Shown: positions 53,788-64,000, numbered from the stretch's first letter. The stretch is DNA of 64,000 bases from Patescibacteria group bacterium (GCA_035291665.1 DATDRP010000006.1:145255-209254); one strand, 5' to 3'. Notes: generated from the letters alone by a model not told the origin. Numbers and translations: made by a program.

Positions 53788-54029
53788 AAACTACTAAAAA
53801 CTTAAAACTGAATACTAAATACTCACAACTCACTTCCCACATCTCACTTCCCATTTCTTTTCGCTTTTCTCTATTCTCTTAATTCCTTAATTCCTATATT
53901 CCTAATTTCTTATCTTCATTTCCCACAACTCACTTCTCACTACTCATTTCCTACTTCCTACCTCCTACAACCTATAACCATTGCCCCTCTCATTTCTCAC
54001 ATCCCACATCCCATCTCTTACAACCTACC
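53788..54029 (+). repeat. G-depleted intergenic mosaic element (long copy)
   Basis: 3 G (53810, 53863, 53983) in 242 nt. 53849-53906 matches 59611-59668 at 54 of 58 positions. Confidence 0.9.
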
Positions 54030-55028: not shown

Positions 55029-55166
55029 ACATTAAAAATATACTATAAGAATATTCAGGAAAAGCCATCGAGTCTAATTGGATCTACCTCGACATCCAAG
55101 CTTGACTTGACTCGGGGGGGGATGTCATAGTCATTGACTTATGGGATAGTTTGATGCAATAATCAC

Positions 55167-58100
55167 TTGAGAATGCGGACGTTTTCAAGAAAGCTATCAT
55201 ATCTTCTTTGTTTTACTCTTCTTTTTTACCAACTCTCCCTTTTTTTATTCAACGATGCAAAAACCGCACAAGCAACTACGGCATCATATCAAGTGTCAAC
55301 TTCTACTGATGATGTAAACGAAGACGGCGGGACAATGAATTCAACAAGTACCAGTATTTGGGTGGGAACGGGCGGATCCACAAGCCAAAGTTACACCGGT
55401 TTCCGATTTACCAACGTAAGTATTCCCCAAGGATCAACTATTACATCTGCTTATATAGAGCTTTGGTCTATCCAAGATTCATGGATTGATACCGGTTATC
55501 AAATCGGGGCAGAAAATGTCGGCAATAGTACAACTTTCACAAGTACAACAAAGCCGTCACAACGGGCTCTGACAACCGCCGTGGTCAACTATTCATCAAG
55601 CTCCCATTGGTTAATCAACACTTGGTATCAGGATGCAAACATACCCTCAGTTATTCAGGAAGTTGTTAACCGTACTGATTGGACAAGCGGTAATGCGTTG
55701 TCGATTATTTACAAGGGAACTTCCGCAGCATGGGGTAGAAAGTATGCATCAAGCTATAACGGGAACCCATCCTATGCTCCGCGTTTAGTTGTTGCATTTG
55801 AAGCCGCAACCACGCCTAGTCCGACGCCGCCGCCGACGCCCACTCCCACTGAAACTCCGACTCCTACACCAACAGAAACACCAACTCCTACTCCTACCGA
55901 ATCTCTAACTCCGACTCCCACGGAAATCCCCACTCCCACTCCGACCGAGACGCCAACGCCAATGCCTACCCCAACAGCCTCGGTTACCCCGACACCTCAG
56001 CCACCTTCGGAATGGACGCAGCTCGGACATGACGCACAGCATTCATCGTACACGGAACAATTTGTCCCAACCCCATGGAAGTGGAAATGGTCATGGAACG
56101 GACCCGACGCAGCAGGAAATGTACGTGCGGATAAACTGAATTATCCCGGAAGCAGTGATTTTACAACTCCGGGTATCCCTCGGAATATTCAACCGGTGAC
56201 CGGTGGGGGTAAAGTATATATTGCTGCCGGAAATTTCGGTGTTTACGCCCTTAATGAGGAAGACGTAAATACTGACAGTTTTGCAGATGTTTTGTGGAAC
56301 GTAAATCCGGTTGCTGGTGGTGGAGTTAAGTCAACTCCCGCATACGATAGCGAAACTGGAGCATTATTTGTTCTTGGAACAAATGGCGTTGTTTACAAAT
56401 TGGATACCCTTAACAGCGGGATCGTGATTGGAGAATTTAATACAAATCAAAGTTATGCACCATATACAACAAGTGCTGACCGATACAATCGGGTAGCGTT
56501 GCCGACATCCCCCACACTTTCGGGAAACCGGTTATTTGTATCGATGGGACAGAAAGTTTTTGCACTGGACAAAAACAATCTTAGTAATCTTATATGGGAG
56601 TACGATGCGGGAGCAGAAGTTTATACACCGCCTGCATACTCAACTGTCAGGGATATGGTCTTTGTTGCATCTCAGGATTTGACACCCGGTCCGGATGGAA
56701 AACTTCATATTTATACGCATGCAATATCAAATTCTAATGGACTGGAATTGTGGAAGACTAGCATCACTAATATCACCGGTGTTGAAGCGGGAGACCCCAA
56801 CCCGCCTCCAAATTACACCAGCCAGGTAAGAGCGGAAGTACTTAACGGTTGGCCGGTTATTGCTGAAGAACATGGTCTGGTTTTTATCAAATTAAGACTT
56901 AATTGGAATACGATGTGGACTTGGAGTCCCTGGTCAACGAGCAATGAGACGAACCGGACGAGGCTTCTTTCCAATCCAACACAACAAGCTCTGATTGCTC
57001 TTTCAATGGATAGCGGGAGCCAACCGTTTGTTGTCAATATCGGTCACGGAGGCTATGGAGATGGATTCATCCCGATGGGACCCCAACCGGTTGTAAAGAG
57101 GTTTGCCGATGGGAGTGAAGTTGTCTATACGATGGTAAGGGGAGACAGTCAATCCGGTGTTGACGGTCGTTCGGATACCCACTTTGGGGAGTTGGTTTTG
57201 GATTCAACAACAGCAACCGGATTTGAACCGGGCTATGTCAGATGGATTGAATACGGTAATTATGGTTGGCCGGCAAATTCAAATAATGATACTCCGCCGA
57301 CAGATGAGCAGCCGAATGTATCAATGTCAGGAAACTATCTTTTCGGAGGCCACTGGGCTGTTGGGAATGCGATGGAAATCGTTGATAGGAATGCAAATTT
57401 GGGAGGCTATTCAAACCCCATCACAACAGAACCGATTCCGAATATCGCTTTAATGACAAATTCGTCAACTGTTCCGGAAGGATTTGACTCTTCACACTAT
57501 GTTTCACACAATTTTGGCATGGCAACGAATGGGGAATGGAGGGCGTTGCCTCCCGGATTTTACGTATATTGGAATCAAGGGCATCTTTATGATCAATACT
57601 GGAGCGACTACTCTACCTGGACAGTTAGTAATAATACCGTTTACTATTTGACGAATGATGGTGCACTTGTTGCTTTAGATCACAATAGTGGCAGTCCTAC
57701 ACCTACACCAACACCCAGTCCAACTGCCACGCCTACTCCCACTGAAACTCCGACTCCGATACCGACCGAGATACCAACACCTACGCCAACTGAGATTCCT
57801 ACCCCGACACCGACTGACATTCCGGCTCCGACTCCAACAGAAATACCTACTCCGACACCTACGGATTCTCCCACTCCAACGCCGACTGATACGCCCACTC
57901 CCACGGACACACCCACTCCGACACCTCCGCTAGTGATTAATATGGCTGTCATGAGCGACAGCTCTTCTGATGAGTATCGTGCAGACGACAATCGTGCCGG
58001 AGGAACTCAATGGGAGTTAACAACGCTGGCCTGGACCGAGTTATTGGAAAAATATCGCGGATTTAATTTGGGGTCTTGGGGAACGCGTGGGGAGCCAAGA

Positions 58101-59597
58101 CGGACCGGTTATGAATACAATTGGGCAAGGACAGGTGCCGAAGCAGCAGATGTAGTTTTTGCCGGCCAACATACAGGCGTTGCTTCCCAGGCACAGTCGG
58201 GTTTAGTCAATATTGTTTATTTCCAGATAGGAAACAACGATTTTGCATATTACCGAGACGGTGCAGATATATATAACGGTGCTCTTTCAGGACAGGCTTT
58301 AACCGATAAAATTAATGCAATAATTTCAAATATCTCAACTTCTCTCGATACTGTTTTGGATGCAGATCCAAACGTAAAGGTAATTCTTGGAAATATTGCA
58401 GATCCTGGACTATCACCTTATTGGGCAGCACAATTCCCTGATCCGGTAAAAAGGCAGTTGGTTACCGATGCAATAAACCAAACTAATGCGGGTATAACAA
58501 ACCTGCTTCTTACCCGGAGCAGAGTTACTTTATTTGATCAAATGGCTTTTGCAAACGAGCTTATGTCTAAGGTTGTTAATGGTAATTTGGTGATAGGCGG
58601 AGAAAATATCAGCTTAACTCAAAATGGCGATGAACCCCACCATGCAATTTTGGGAGATAATATCCATGGCGGGACAGTAATGGAAGGCTTAGTTGCCAAC
58701 GGTTTGATTCCTCTGGTAAATCAGACAACCGGATCGCAGATTCAATTATTTTCTGAAACCGAAATTTTGAATAATTCTGGTATCTTTCCCAGTCCGACTC
58801 CGACTCCCACGGTGATTCCTACTCCGACACCTACTCCGGTGTTTGAAACTCACTATATATCGGTAAATCCGGACGGAGTTATCGGAGGGGTAGCTGTTGC
58901 CGGAGAAGATATTCTCAAATTCAATACCGTAACTGGTTTGTATGAAACATACTTCGACGGTTCGGATGTTGAGCTTTCGGGAACATCGATTGATGCGTTT
59001 ACCTTTCTTCCCGGAGGCGACATGATTCTGTCTTTTTCCGGAAGCGTTTCAATAACTGGGTTGGGGACAGTCGCTTCGCAGGACTTGGTCAGGTTTACTC
59101 CGCTTTCGACAGGTAATAGTACAAGCGGATCTTTTAGTTTATATTTTGACGGATCAGATGTTGCCTTAAGCAATTCGTCGGAAAATATAGATTCAGTATC
59201 GGTTTTGGAAAATGGGGATATTCTCTTATCAACAAATGGCAGTATTTCCGTAACCGGAGTTTCAGCAAACGATGAAGATATTATCGAATTTACTCCGACT
59301 TCACTCGGTCCGGCAACTTCGGGAAGCTGGTCACTTTATTTTGATGCATCTGATGTTGGATTATCAAGTACGAGCGAAGATATCGATGCTTTGAGTATCG
59401 CGTCATCGGGAGATTTTTATCTTTCAACAAGCGGCAGCTTCAGTGTTACGGGTGTCTCCGGTCAAAATAATGATGTCTTTATCTTTGATCCGTTAACTTT
59501 GGGAGGGGATTCGTCAGGAACTTTTTCCCAGCCGATTTATTTGGACGGAAGCGCTTTCGGATTATCGGGTTTCAACGTTACGGGATACTACAAATAA
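55167..59597 (+). CDS. 1476-aa secreted multidomain protein: unassigned N-domain, PT linker, PQQ-like beta-propeller, PT linker, SGNH/GDSL-like hydrolase, PT linker, four novel ~64-aa repeats
   Basis: Signal/TM at the N-terminus (start TTG 55167 or ATG 55173). Propeller-type repeats ([62 protein letters not shown]). SGNH blocks ([22 protein letters not shown]). Confidence 0.85.
55811..56005 (+). repeat. Coding Pro/Thr linker 1 (degenerate TPTPTE codon repeats)
   Basis: [56 protein letters not shown]... Confidence 0.85.
57694..57930 (+). repeat. Coding Pro/Thr linker 2 (degenerate TPTPTE/D codon repeats)
   Basis: [79 protein letters not shown]. Confidence 0.85.
58878..59594 (+). repeat. Four tandem ~64-aa protein repeats at the C-terminus of the 1476-aa protein
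   Basis: Units begin near 58878, 59073, 59265 and 59460. Consensus: [ED]D[IL]..F.P...[22 protein letters not shown]....GD..LST.GS.SVTGVS. Confidence 0.75.
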
Positions 59598-59825
59598 CTT
59601 ACAACTCATTTCCCATTTATTTTCCCTTTTCTCTAGTCTCTTAGTTCCTTAATTCCTATATTCCTAATATCCTACCCCCTATCTCTAATAACCAATTATC
59701 AAATTCCAAATACCAAACAATAAATTTCTAATATCTAATTTCCAATAAATTTTCTCTTAGTTCCTTAATTCCTTTATTCCTGATATCCTACCTCCTATAA
59801 CCTGCAACCTATAACCATTATACCC
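59598..59825 (+). repeat. G-depleted intergenic mosaic element (long copy with internal 46-nt duplication)
   Basis: 5 G in 228 nt. 59637-59682 and 59753-59798 are identical at 43 of 46 positions. Colinear with 53849-53906 and 53957-53982. Confidence 0.9.
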
Positions 59826-60551
59826 TCACATTCTGTAGCTTAACGCTGAAGTGTTGGCTTTTGTGATATTAACACTTAGGATTTCACCATCATAATTGAA
59901 TACGAATGAAACACGAGCATCAAGATTGTTTGTGATGTATAGATTTTGTCTTGCACTTTTATCAAATCCGCCGGGAAGATAAAAAATTGAAACTCCGTAT
60001 TCCTTCGGAACTTCATTAATAACAGCAAAATTGTGATTTGAAGGATCATATGCAGTCAGTCCTGCATCTTTTGCCGCCCAGTATAAAATTGATGCCAAAT
60101 GGCAGACACCGTCTCCCATAAGATAACCATCGGACTTGAACCCATCCTGATAGTTGAAGCGGGCATTAGTCGTTTTAACTACATTTTTATTAAACTTATC
60201 CAGTATCTGGCTATGAAAAGCAAAGCTTTCTCCCGGGTTCAAATCAAACTTATAGTCCCTGGGTTTTTCAATATTCTCCCAGACGATTTCTGATTTATTT
60301 TTAACTGTCCCGTCCATATAGTTTAAAGTCAGAAGGATATTATCTTTGAATACATCATTTACAAATTTATTGGGATATCTCTCCTCCAAAGATATGGATT
60401 TTGAAGAAAGGGTAGAGTATCCTTCTTCTTCTACGGAATTATTATTTGCCACATTGACCACCTCCGCCGGGGACGACGGGAATAAAATTATCAGTAATAT
60501 AAAAAGATAAAGTAATTTTTTATACATAGGACTCACTTTTTTTTCAGACAT
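59826..60551 (-). CDS. VanW-like protein
   Basis: N-terminal signal/TM. The GDGVCHLASILYWAAKDAGL motif resembles the VanW-domain GGGVCQ.S.TLY core. Confidence 0.6.
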   Translation of the reverse strand: MSEKKVSPMYKKLLYLFILLIILFPSSPAEVVNVANNNSVEEEGYSTLSSKSISLEERYPNKFVNDVFKDNILLTLNYMDGTVKNKSEIVWENIEKPRDYKFDLNPGESFAFHSQILDKFNKNVVKTTNARFNYQDGFKSDGYLMGDGVCHLASILYWAAKDAGLTAYDPSNHNFAVINEVPKEYGVSIFYLPGGFDKSARQNLYITNNLDARVSFVFNYDGEILSVNITKANTSALSYRM

Positions 60552-60655
60552 AAAAAAAGTTCCCGAACGGGAACTATAGTGTGTATATTACCACATTATA
60601 GGTCTTTTTTCAACCTAACTGATGAAAATATGTTTATTTTTTGATAGTCTGAAAT

Positions 60656-61351
60656 ATGGCAAAATATCGGAAAAACAATTTCCCCTATCTGATAACCGTA
60701 CTTTCCGTAGTTCTTATTAGCCTTGGAATTTTTATATCAAAAAGGAATGTTTCCTATTCCAAGTGTGCAAACACTTTGAGCTGTGAAGAAAGTCTTAACT
60801 TTTCCATAAACAATGATGAAACAGCCGTTTTTAATGGTGAAATCATTAAGCCGCCGGAAATAGATCTTGCGCAAATTATTGACGAACCGAAAGTATTGGG
60901 TGAAGAAACCGCAGTTTCGGACAAACGTATTGAAGTTGACTTGACTACGCAAACCCTCAAAGCATATGAAGGAGAGAAGCTTTATATGGAAAGTAAAATA
61001 TCATCCGGAAAAATGTTTCCTACGCCAAACGGGGAATTTACCATATGGAGAAAAATAAGAGCCACCAAGATGTCGGGCGGGACGGGTAATGGATATTATT
61101 ACCTTCCGAATGTGCCGTATGTTATGTTTTTTTCCGGTTCCAAATTATCAGCCGGACTCGGGTTTAGCCTTCACGGTACATATTGGCATGACAATTTTGG
61201 CCACCCCATGAGTCACGGCTGTGTGAACATGAAGACGCGGGATGCAAAGAAACTTTTCGAATGGGTGGATCCTCCAATGACTCCCGAACAAAAACAATCC
61301 GAACCGGGTGAAACCGGAACAAAAATAATCATATATGGAAAAGCACCATAA
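60656..61351 (+). CDS. L,D-transpeptidase (YkuD domain)
   Basis: N-terminal TM. Catalytic HG...SHGCVNM motif. Confidence 0.85.
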   Translation: MAKYRKNNFPYLITVLSVVLISLGIFISKRNVSYSKCANTLSCEESLNFSINNDETAVFNGEIIKPPEIDLAQIIDEPKVLGEETAVSDKRIEVDLTTQTLKAYEGEKLYMESKISSGKMFPTPNGEFTIWRKIRATKMSGGTGNGYYYLPNVPYVMFFSGSKLSAGLGFSLHGTYWHDNFGHPMSHGCVNMKTRDAKKLFEWVDPPMTPEQKQSEPGETGTKIIIYGKAP

Positions 61352-61964
61352 TAAATATTATTTAATTTTGACCTTATCCGGAATATTTCTTACTACCGGA
61401 CTTGTACTTATGGCCGCATCCGGACTGAAGAAAGATGTGTCTGTGACTACCGATTTGGCGTATGACGCCAAAACTGAAATCCCATTCAAAGAAGAAGAGG
61501 CGGACATTATTTCCCCCGACGGCAAATATACTCTAACCGTTAAAAAAGGAATGGAATTGAATGGATTGGTTCCCCAATCATTTTATATATCATCGGAAAA
61601 GGACTCATCCCCGATAAAAATATTTGAAAAAAATTCAAAACCCGAAAATATGATATCAGTCCCGGAAAACACTTTTTCTCCGGATAATAAATATATTTTT
61701 CTGAAATACGACGAACAGGGTAAATCCCGATATCTTGTTTTACGGACAAACGGGGAAGAAATAAGGAATGGAGTTCCGACCGTGGAATTTGAGGGTCTTT
61801 TCAGCGAGAAATATCCTGAATTTGTTATTACTGATGTAACCGGATGGGGTAGCTATAGTTTAATTGTTATAAATACTGACACAATAGACGGAAAAACAGG
61901 TCCATCCTGGTGGTTTGACCTATCCAGCCTTACATTTATCCGTTTATCATCGAGATTTAATTGA
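61335..61964 (+). CDS. Hypothetical membrane-anchored protein
   Basis: 209-aa ORF with an N-terminal TM. Overlaps the ldt end by 17 nt. Confidence 0.5.
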   Translation: MEKHHNKYYLILTLSGIFLTTGLVLMAASGLKKDVSVTTDLAYDAKTEIPFKEEEADIISPDGKYTLTVKKGMELNGLVPQSFYISSEKDSSPIKIFEKNSKPENMISVPENTFSPDNKYIFLKYDEQGKSRYLVLRTNGEEIRNGVPTVEFEGLFSEKYPEFVITDVTGWGSYSLIVINTDTIDGKTGPSWWFDLSSLTFIRLSSRFN

Positions 61965-62059
61965 TACATAATTTCTTCAAAGGATAAAAGCCCGTATTGA
62001 AATATTGATATAGTATGTAAGCTGTGTTACAGACTTATGAGTTCAATTGCGTAAAATGA

Positions 62060-62716
62060 ATGAAGTATATGAATAATAAAGTTATAGTTGCTGCAGTCGT
62101 TCTGATATTGCTGCTTGTTGGCGGAGGAGCATATTTGATGATGTCCAAGAAGTCTGGCGTAACTACCCCAACAAGTGTTAATAATTCACAAGGAAGCGCT
62201 GTCCAAGAAACGACCGGATCGGGTCAAAAGTCGCTTAAGGATTTACTTTTGGCGGGAGTCCCGCAAAAATGCAGCTTTAGCGATGTAAGTAGCGGTGTGG
62301 AGATGGACGGAACATCATATATTGCCGGTGGAAAAGTCCGTGCCGATTTTAATTCAAAAACAGAAGGAAAGGCAACTTCCGGTCATACAATTGTTGACGG
62401 AAACACAAGTTACATTTGGATGGACGGATCGCAAACGGGATTTAAGATGGAAGTTAATGAAACCGAAAGCGACACGTCTTCAAATACAAATCAGGAAGGA
62501 TTGGATTTGAATAAATCGATTGACTATAAGTGCAGTACCTGGCTTCCTGATCAATCACTATTTAACCCACCGAGTGATGTTTCATTTACACAATTTTCTG
62601 CACCGCCAACCCAGGCAGCAGGTTCTAATACTCAATTGAACAATTTATGCAGCAGCTGTGATGCACTTACCGGTGATCAAAAAACCCAATGTCTATCTGC
62701 TTTGAACTGCAATTAA
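62060..62716 (+). CDS. Hypothetical membrane-anchored protein with C-terminal Cys motif
   Basis: 218-aa ORF with an N-terminal TM. C-terminal CSSCDAL..QKTQCLSALNC. Confidence 0.5.
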   Translation: MKYMNNKVIVAAVVLILLLVGGGAYLMMSKKSGVTTPTSVNNSQGSAVQETTGSGQKSLKDLLLAGVPQKCSFSDVSSGVEMDGTSYIAGGKVRADFNSKTEGKATSGHTIVDGNTSYIWMDGSQTGFKMEVNETESDTSSNTNQEGLDLNKSIDYKCSTWLPDQSLFNPPSDVSFTQFSAPPTQAAGSNTQLNNLCSSCDALTGDQKTQCLSALNCN

Positions 62717-62777
62717 TACATCTGACAGATTGGATTTTATCCCTTTTTAATTCTAAATTGAAGCTAAAAAATTATAT

Positions 62778-62942
62778 ATGTTAATCGGAGGAGCACAAAG
62801 TATTACATCATCAGCTCTCATTGCAGTACCCTTTTTCGGGTTTATCAGTAGTGGACTTTTATTAACCATAACAAAATTTCTGGGAGGTGTTGTTTTACTA
62901 AGCTTCAGCACGACTAGAATACTTAGGGTTTTCATCAGATAG
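62778..62942 (+). CDS. Possible small two-TM protein (54 aa), not in the ORF track
   Basis: MLIGGAQSITSSALIAVPFFGFISSGLLLTITKFLGGVVLLSFSTTRILRVFIR. It ends 14 nt before the GT2 start. No SD. Confidence 0.25.
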   Translation: MLIGGAQSITSSALIAVPFFGFISSGLLLTITKFLGGVVLLSFSTTRILRVFIR

Positions 62943-62956
62943 CAGACAAATTGAAT

Positions 62957-64000
62957 ATGGATGTATTTACGCTCTTCACTTTAATAATAGTTGTTTTGGG
63001 GACTTTAAATCTTTTCAGACTGACTTTTTTTATGGTGGGATCGGATATTTATGGTTTAAAAAATCATATACGCAAACGGAAAAAGTCAACATATGAACCG
63101 AATGTCATTGTTGTTATTCCGGCATACAACGAAGAGATAAGTATTACCTCATGTGTTACTTCCGTTCTACGAAGCAATTACCCCCGGGAAAAACTGGAAG
63201 TGATAGTGATCAATGATGGTTCAACCGACAAAACCAAAGAAATACTTGAAGAATATCAGCTAAAATCCAATGCCAGAAATCTAAAGATTGTCACTCAGGA
63301 AAATTCCGGAAAAGCTCATTCGTTGAATAACGGAATTCGCAATTATTCACACGGGGAACTGGTGATGTGTCTCGATGGGGATTCCATTCTATCGGAAAAT
63401 GCAATCAAAAATGCCGTTTTATATTTTGAAAAAGAAAATGTGATGGCGCTTGCATCAAATTTAAAAATTCAAAAAGGTAAGGGGATCTTAAATCTGATTC
63501 AAAGGTTTGAATATGCGGTTTCATACCAAATGAAAAAAGCCCAGACGGTTTTTAATATCGAATACATTATCGGGGGTGTGGGATCTATTTTCAGGCGTTC
63601 AATTCTGGAAAAAGTGCGCTTTTATGACACAAATACAGTGACAGAGGATATCGATTTGACTATGAAAATCATTAATAACGGCAATAAAGAATTCCGCGTG
63701 ATTTATGGTTCGGATGTTGTTGCATATACCCAAAGCGCGCTGACTATTAAAGATCTGATAAAACAGCGCTACCGCTGGAAATGGGGAAGATATCAAACTT
63801 TTTTGAAAAATAAGAAATTATTTTTTTCATTTGACAAAAAATATACAAAAGGGCTTTCTTGGTTTTATTTGCCTTTTGCACTTTTCACCGACATTACATT
63901 TTTCCTGGAGCCATTGATGCTGACTTATATCTGGCTTGTGATTTTGGGCCATCGGGATTACGGGAGTTTTTTGGTAATGATAGCAATCGTAACTTATTAC
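62957..64000 (+). CDS. Processive family-2 glycosyltransferase (PgaC/NodC/cellulose-synthase-like), 3' end outside window
   Basis: Open frame from ATG 62957 to the window end. VVIPAYNEE, INDGSTD, DGD, TEDIDL and the QRYRW (QxxRW) motif. Confidence 0.85.
   Translation, partial: MDVFTLFTLIIVVLGTLNLFRLTFFMVGSDIYGLKNHIRKRKKSTYEPNVIVVIPAYNEEISITSCVTSVLRSNYPREKLEVIVINDGSTDKTKEILEEYQLKSNARNLKIVTQENSGKAHSLNNGIRNYSHGELVMCLDGDSILSENAIKNAVLYFEKENVMALASNLKIQKGKGILNLIQRFEYAVSYQMKKAQTVFNIEYIIGGVGSIFRRSILEKVRFYDTNTVTEDIDLTMKIINNGNKEFRVIYGSDVVAYTQSALTIKDLIKQRYRWKWGRYQTFLKNKKLFFSFDKKYTKGLSWFYLPFALFTDITFFLEPLMLTYIWLVILGHRDYGSFLVMIAIVTYY

Follow-up and report, generated by a model that had tools for sequence, protein, structure and literature searches.

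Within the 64,000-nucleotide stretch of Patescibacteria group bacterium DNA analysed here (GCA_035291665.1 DATDRP010000006.1:145255-209254, hereafter the window), an uninterrupted open reading frame (ORF) on the forward strand (55167..59597) was found to encode a protein of 1476 amino acids (aa). The product is probably a single modular hydrolase, secreted or located on the cell surface, of a Patescibacteria (candidate phyla radiation, CPR) bacterium, built by the shuffling of domains through proline/threonine-rich (PT) linkers. The ORF starts with TTG at 55167 and possesses an ATG at its third codon (55173), and the chance of 1476 codons occurring without a stop at the base composition of the window is approximately 1e-43. 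All other ORFs in the window are of 566 aa or fewer, in agreement with an earlier note on this DNA that had described the gene as the largest present. The size of the product, the order of its domains and the boundaries of its segments, as proposed in that note, were likewise confirmed by the ORF and its translation (Table 1), as was the description of a mosaic with a secretion signal and three PT linkers. The N-terminus was found to consist of a basic n-region (R2, R4, R8 and K9) and a 19-residue hydrophobic core, with the residues A-Q-A situated ahead of T37.

Table 1. Segments of the 1476-aa protein and their positions in the window
Segment	Residues (aa)	Window coordinates	Strand	Description
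Signal peptide	1-36	55167..55274	+	Read directly from the translation
N-module	37-213	55275..55805	+	Divergent DNRLRE/CBM96-class β-sandwich, putative polymer-binding
PT linker 1	214-280	55806..56006	+	Units of (T/E)-P-T-P-T-P type
Propeller unit	281-840	56007..57686	+	Distinct, mostly Chloroflexota family, conserved end to end
PT linker 2	841-921	57687..57929	+	
SGNH/GDSL hydrolase domain	922-1206	57930..58784	+	
PT linker 3	1207-1224	58785..58838	+	
C-terminal four-repeat module (putative propeller)	1225-1476 and stop codon	58839..59597	+	

Searches of Pfam, NCBIfam and the PDB with the whole protein returned next to no matches, and the PDB matches obtained from the whole-protein sequence search were rejected as artefacts of the low-complexity PT linkers. 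Neither the architecture nor the family of its C-terminal module was found to be described in the literature searched. Upstream of the gene, two sigma-70-like promoter matches were observed in 55102-55163 (TTGACT-18-CATAGT and TTGACT-18-AATAAT), each with a TG extension. The second of these stops 3 nt short of the TTG, and a clear ribosome-binding site could not be seen upstream of the gene; the real start may be ATG 55173, or else the mRNA may possess a very short leader. Alternative frames over PT linker 2 contain a 103-aa ORF on the minus strand (57680-57991, GVGVSVGVG...) and an 81-aa ORF on the plus strand (57688-57933), which are artefacts of the repetitive CCN/ACN codons and not genes.

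The predicted active-site signature of the SGNH/GDSL hydrolase domain is intact. Block I was identified as S930-D931-S932, where a Ser replaces the usual leading Gly (codon of the predicted nucleophile, 57960-57962), a candidate block II as N985-W986-A-R-T-G990-A, preceded by Y, block III as G1022-N-N1024-D and block V as D1164-N-I-H1167 (codons 58656-58667). In an alignment of 54 family sequences D931, S932, G1022, N1024 and H1167 were invariant and D1164 was conserved in at least 90%, placing blocks I, III and V, as they had been read in the earlier note, on invariant or near-invariant columns. Residues N985 and W986 of block II are also at least 90% conserved, with G990 being part of the family consensus but outside the list of residues conserved at that level. 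A total of 220 homologs were identified, the best of which (64% identity) is a stand-alone, dockerin-bearing esterase. The majority are stand-alone secreted proteins of approximately 320-400 aa, with some carrying dockerin, Ig-like or cadherin-like domains, which indicates that the family is extracellular. When scored alone, the domain of the window lies below the gathering thresholds of PF13472 (23.5 bits, threshold 32.9) and PF00657 (19 bits, threshold 23.6). Among the 54 family members, 48 match PF00657 and 44 match PF13472 at E≤1e-3, and since homologs 40-64% identical to the domain match these models, its membership holds by transitivity.

Comparison of the SGNH family profile to the PDB identified Vibrio thermolabile hemolysin/phospholipase entries (E of 1e-3) and an SGNH/GDSL protein (8h09), with weaker matches to ChoE and other GDSL esterases. 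This similarity is partial: it covers approximately 100 residues of the central part of the domain and leaves out the catalytic blocks. More than ten of the homologs carry the Joint Genome Institute (JGI) name 'phospholipase/lecithinase/hemolysin', and no carbohydrate-esterase relative of the family was found, either with the family profile against the PDB or among homolog names. The domain has blocks I, III and V, along with a candidate block II, in common with GDSL/SGNH lipases and esterases of the COG3240 type, such as the Vibrio thermolabile hemolysin (PDB 6jl1) and Pseudomonas ChoE (PDB 6uqv), and like these its family members match PF00657 and PF13472; enzymes of this type are also the sole solved relatives that the family profile reaches. 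It differs from 6jl1 and 6uqv in the weak and partial nature of the similarity, in an extended block I motif particular to the family of the window domain, and in being located inside a 1476-aa mosaic. The substrate could be an acylated glycan, from the context of the binding modules and as conjectured in the earlier note for an envelope of the cell itself or of a host, or a lipid, from the nearest relatives.

The N-module, which the earlier note had read as a β-rich segment of about 180 aa, was found to be present and is a divergent, putative binding domain of the DNRLRE/CBM96 class (CBM96 being a carbohydrate-binding module family). Its AlphaFold2 (AF2) model, with a pLDDT (predicted local distance difference test) score of 93.6, displays the β-sandwich of the characterised DNRLRE/CBM96 members. 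NCBIfam NF033679 (DNRLRE) aligns to the module over model positions 13-163 of 164 (E of 6e-6), with a score of 26.4 bits that falls short of formal membership (cut-off 34), and matches six of eight members of the N-module family. A word-indexed search found only seven homologs of the module, mostly proteins of approximately 200-300 aa. Nothing in Pfam was matched by the module, PF24517 (CBM96) being without a match at E≤10, and an hhalign comparison with a true CBM96 sequence gave a probability of 14% over 29 columns, covering the signature strand only. Relatives L022 and L036 do possess a bona fide Pfam CBM96 domain immediately upstream of the same propeller.

CBM96 is approximately 30% identical to DNRLRE domains, and both have been found on polysaccharide lyases and on a polyhydroxybutyrate (PHB) depolymerase (PMC9971899, PMC12278694); the ligand residues of the CBM96 of 7vbo are Lys and Arg (PMC9971899). 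Modular extracellular enzymes with domains of this class include the alginate lyase Dp0100 of Defluviitalea phaphyphila (PDB 7vbo; PMC9971899) and a chondroitin lyase with its CBM (PDB 8wab). As in these systems, the window protein would be a secreted multidomain enzyme in which a β-sandwich of the DNRLRE/CBM96 class takes the catalytic module to a polymer, and some relatives of its propeller have a true Pfam CBM96 at the same position. Unlike in these systems, the module of the window scores below the NCBIfam cut-off and has no Pfam CBM96 match, and its catalytic partner is a GDSL esterase with an uncharacterised propeller rather than a polysaccharide lyase.

An exhaustive search with the propeller unit returned 270 cluster representatives at E≤1e-3, with matches extending over query residues 2-559 and located in proteins of 600-2469 aa. 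Among species-representative genomes the family was found mostly in Chloroflexota, including the cultured Anaerolinea thermolimosa, with some members in Bipolaricaulota and Armatimonadota. PF13360 (PQQ_2) matches all 35 aligned members of the family (best 3e-25), with the propeller of the window alone scoring 26.9-27.0 bits (cut-off 27.6). Against the PDB, the family profile matched Cake8 (3.5e-71), 3hxj (1e-34) and BamB (approximately 1e-26); these PQQ/BamB matches are confined to positions 100-282 of the 651 in the profile, and with a profile of the C-terminal half only the last ~30 positions, corresponding to a closing blade, were matched. The description in the earlier note of 560 aa of PQQ/BamB-like repeats holds for approximately aa 375-540 and for the closing blade at approximately aa 811-838, where blades of this type are detectable, but not for the ~250 residues between, which match nothing. 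An hhalign comparison of the N-terminal with the C-terminal half of the unit gave no significant internal repeat. In the segment of approximately aa 550-810, the pair D713-E714 is invariant in the family, and D666, R668, E675, H729 and W730 are nearly so.

With BamB and the PQQ-like eight-bladed β-propellers (among them archaeal 'cell surface protein' propellers, with PDB 3hxj and the templates of the designed Cake proteins, 6tjg), the unit has PQQ-type blade motifs in common. It differs from these in that it matches by its N-terminal blades and closing blade only, and in that the ~250 residues, among which invariant Asp, Glu and His of the family are found, have no counterpart. Its context is also extracellular and modular, unlike that of BamB, an outer-membrane lipoprotein of the BAM complex, and no evidence for PQQ binding was found for the propeller of the window. 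Relatives of the propeller were found fused to CBM96 directly upstream (L022, L036), to LamG/ConA-like lectin domains, to DUF5060 and to dockerins, with the last of these present on nine of the 35 aligned members. Such a set of partners is a pattern typical of extracellular polymer-directed proteins.

A conserved C-terminal extension of approximately 127 aa was also observed among Chloroflexota members of the propeller family (L035:7480-7866, with an equivalent region in most of L003-L082), with the consensus ...TVEGxLRxVFNNGKAVxLGF..PHQGxFKV...GQRVxVxGxIxWYQGDPVIYV.... This extension had no Pfam match in the seven relatives scanned and is absent from the window protein. One protein of the propeller family gave a weak OB-fold (tRNA_anti-codon) match, somewhere in the protein.

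As judged from its AF2 model (pLDDT of 96.8), the C-terminal module is probably a four-bladed propeller that resembles hemopexin and represents a family of its own. This gives a tentative assignment to the four repeats of about 64 aa reported in the earlier note, which were recovered here with motifs at aa 1262, 1326, 1391 and 1458, spaced by 64, 65 and 67 residues. Each repeat (~65 aa) contains the motif (Y/L)(F/L)D(G/A)S, with repeats one to three also containing an IDA/IDS motif (SIDAF, NIDSV and DIDAL). Foldseek returned generic propellers only for the model, with a template modelling (TM) score of at most 0.44. The module itself matched no Pfam family at E≤10, the hemopexin family PF00045 included. 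A total of 845 homologs were identified at approximately 50% identity, with source names that include Rokubacteria, Gaiellaceae and Anaerolineae. Hardly any of these has a Pfam domain precomputed, and in a scan of four of them no Pfam cut-off was reached. Among the 120 homologs listed, PF28325 was precomputed on one, and the module stops a median of 7 residues short of the C-terminus. The homologs often carry PKD, cadherin-like or FN3 domains ahead of the module.

Propellers with the hemopexin fold include the chickpea lectin/PA2 albumin (PDB 3s18) and the C-terminal domains of matrix metalloproteinases (MMPs; MMP-12, PDB 3ba0). As in MMPs, the putative propeller of the window protein occupies the C-terminus, behind a catalytic domain and a hinge rich in proline, which suggests an exosite role. 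By analogy with the lectins and with the catalytic-hinge-hemopexin layout of MMPs, the module probably serves as an exosite for ligand binding or as an anchor. It is distinguished from hemopexin domains by the lack of a Pfam hemopexin match, by an identity of 9-12% and the low TM scores given above, and by repeats of ~65 aa in place of approximately 45-50 aa, and it belongs to a separate, large bacterial family that has no Pfam match in the scans run.

The nearest relatives of the propeller and C-terminal repeats were found on contigs of 51-55% GC from another sample. One of these relatives (L001, from an organism of 54% GC) encodes a signal peptide, an N-module, a PT linker of ~400 aa, an SGNH domain, a propeller and C-terminal repeats on one strand, with a few frameshifts. 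It thus has the same four modules as the window protein with SGNH domain and propeller swapped, and its N-terminus is equivalent to that of the window protein. Identity between the two was found to be ~70% for the propeller, 56% for the C-terminal repeats and ~45% for both the SGNH domain and the N-module; the SGNH domain of the window is closer to the stand-alone dockerin-bearing esterase (64%) than to that of L001. The linker between the N-module and SGNH domain of L001 (L001:6090-7300) is exceptionally long, and the gene was split by gene callers into several ORFs, including spurious minus-strand ORFs over the linker. The frameshifts may represent sequencing or assembly indels, or a real pseudogene.

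Other relatives were found to combine fewer of these parts. L002 has the propeller and C-terminal repeats only, P0322 an N-module followed by the propeller, and P0248 a region that resembles LamG, as judged from its sequence and from analogy to other relatives, followed by the propeller and an N-module, with L093 ending directly after the propeller. On L091 (8001-9990) a signal peptide, N-module and PT-rich tail were observed, followed by a 341-aa ORF resembling a β-propeller of the BNR/sialidase type. A metagenome scan for closer orthologs identified none with the same architecture. The differences in module order among these relatives are due to PT-linker-mediated domain shuffling, with the four-part combination having been assembled at least twice, or rearranged. 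Transfer of the gene family between this CPR lineage and Chloroflexota-like organisms is probable, a direction being suggested by its mostly Chloroflexota distribution. GC content at third codon positions (GC3) was found to be 0.35-0.40 for the four domain modules and 0.32-0.39 for neighbouring genes, with short PT linkers reaching 0.45, and this uniform, host-like composition suggests that the gene has since been ameliorated to its host.

Genes in the vicinity encode an Amidase_2 protein, YceG/MltG, VanW and a YkuD L,D-transpeptidase, as expected from the peptidoglycan-remodelling neighbours described in the earlier note. Proteins encoded by neighbouring genes are recorded under the name Patescibacteria group bacterium and are present on a contig of ~606 kb too. 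A functional tie to these adjacent genes was considered and rejected as unsupported, as no gene neighbourhood is conserved among relatives of the propeller: in a set of 80 genome loci, each partner was limited to nine loci or fewer. The commonest neighbour of propeller genes was observed to be a BNR-like ORF, present in nine of these loci. Downstream of the gene, the intergenic region preceding the convergent VanW gene (59598-59825) is nearly devoid of G, as previously noted, with five G in 228 nt. It holds two 65-nt direct repeats (59637-59701 and 59753-59817) that are 82% identical. Similar G-free runs start at 53864 (119 nt), 53066 (97 nt) and 51250 (66 nt), between or just past larger ORFs, which makes the G-poverty look like a genome-wide intergenic feature rather than an element tied to this gene.

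As a modular hydrolase, the protein would be exported through the Sec pathway, with its signal peptide probably being cleaved after A36, and its three flexible Pro/Thr linkers would tether four independently folding modules. The β-sandwich of the N-module would bind an extracellular polymer, with the large PQQ/BamB-type propeller probably serving as a further domain for ligand binding, or possibly for catalysis. The esterase would then take acyl groups off the bound substrate, with Ser932 as the predicted nucleophile, Gly990 and Asn1024 forming the oxyanion hole and Asp1164-His1167 completing the site as a pair. The putative C-terminal four-bladed propeller may act as a lectin-like exosite or as an anchoring module. 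Such an architecture would be the outcome of PT-linker shuffling of modules that existed beforehand, within a gene family that Chloroflexota-like organisms also possess.

The integrity of the assembly bears on this model, with mis-assembly across the PT linkers having been named in the earlier note as a point to check. Contig L085 (JGI) was found to be 100% identical to the window over 55771-64000, crossing all three linkers as a single contig with the order propeller, SGNH domain and C-terminal repeats, and contig L086, from a second sample, is 100% identical over 58283-60664, which backs the junction between the SGNH domain and the C-terminal repeats. These contigs argue against the possibility that the module order, or the fusion itself, is an artefact of reads mis-joined over the linkers, with the true locus having the order of L001 or consisting of separate genes. 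That possibility draws on the reversed order of SGNH domain and propeller in L001, the nearest four-module relative, and on contigs of JGI sample 3300002503 that stop 5 bp short of linker 1. It draws also on the exact 1476-aa product having no record, with either start codon, in the protein collections searched. The short-read contigs of this sample (L083 and L085) break at linker 1, and this break may account for the absence of the full-length product from those collections. Contig L083 ends at 55801 and shares with L085 a unique 31-mer (55771-55801) that lies 5 bp ahead of the linker, and the window's own longer assembly also carries the junction of N-module and linker 1. The copies of the linker are only 60-84% identical at the DNA level, the longest exact DNA repeat in the gene being 23 bp (linker 1 against linker 2), and the reading frame is continuous. 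A chimera between genomes was ruled out by the uniform GC3. The unequal identities of SGNH domain and propeller to L001 further indicate different histories and not one swapped gene, and an assembly artefact is considered highly unlikely.

What the protein acts upon, or whether it acts as an enzyme, can also be read differently. It is unlikely, on balance, that the esterase is a GDSL phospholipase or acyltransferase of the Vibrio thermolabile hemolysin (TLH) or Aeromonas GCAT type, held on a host envelope by the binding modules and freeing fatty acids or lysolipids for a lipid-auxotrophic, episymbiotic CPR cell. CPR bacteria rely on host lipids, and the Patescibacteria origin of the window fits such a role, as do the thermolabile hemolysin/phospholipase entries and 8h09 as the only significant solved relatives, the JGI names of homologs and the frequent matches of the family to the lipase-type GDSL model PF00657. 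The similarity to these structures is, however, limited to the central part of the domain; the partner modules, namely those of the CBM96 class, LamG and dockerin, are typical of glycan-directed enzymes; and the same esterase family occurs stand-alone in free-living Bradyrhizobium, Gemmatimonadales and Anaerolineales. The four-module L001 is, moreover, from an organism with Kdp and other genes of a free-living type, indicating that the module set is not specific to episymbionts. A non-enzymatic adhesin or S-layer-associated scaffold, in which propellers and β-sandwich attach and the SGNH region is a degenerate binding domain, would fit with PQQ-like propellers being common in 'cell surface proteins' (PDB entries so named), with PKD, cadherin-like and FN3 stalk domains on homologs of the C-terminal repeats, and with an SGNH domain under Pfam cut-offs that has S-D-S and not G-D-S in block I. 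The retention in the window of each of S932, G1022, N1024, H1167 and D1164 would be unexpected for a decayed site, and this reading is held to be very unlikely. It is distinctly unlikely, if a little less so, that the four modules form a laterally transferred 'envelope-processing cassette' with which the CPR host opens or strips the envelope of the bacterium it lives on. In such a cassette the ~250-residue core of the propeller (D713-E714, H729, E675, R668) would be a new catalytic domain, for example a glycan-cleaving one, in tandem with the esterase, and the C-terminal propeller would be the first example of a large, uncharacterised family of bacterial lectins or anchors. The reading as a modular hydrolase has points standing against it as well. 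The SGNH, PQQ and DNRLRE scores of the window protein are all under curated cut-offs, with assignment made via family transitivity and folds, and no solved match to approximately aa 550-810 was obtained with the family and C-half profiles against the PDB. In public contigs the junction of N-module and linker 1 is covered by the 31-bp overlap and the continuous reading frame only. Lastly, the nearest solved relatives of the SGNH domain are lipases and phospholipases, and such relatives agree with a lipid substrate no less well than with an acetylated glycan.

With its unusual set of parts, the protein does not overturn current understanding and is of an ordinary type of modular extracellular enzyme. 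It draws attention to two under-annotated families, namely a Chloroflexota-centred propeller unit that is repeatedly fused to CBM96, LamG and dockerin domains, and a putative C-terminal four-bladed propeller with hundreds of relatives across several phyla. It also provides a clean example of PT-linker shuffling, with the same four parts being found in another order in a distant organism. Patescibacteria are dependent on other cells, and to our knowledge few of their surface enzymes have assigned functions. With two putative binding modules and an intact predicted esterase site, the protein, the domains of which can be expressed one at a time, is a tangible candidate for contact with a host or with a matrix polymer.

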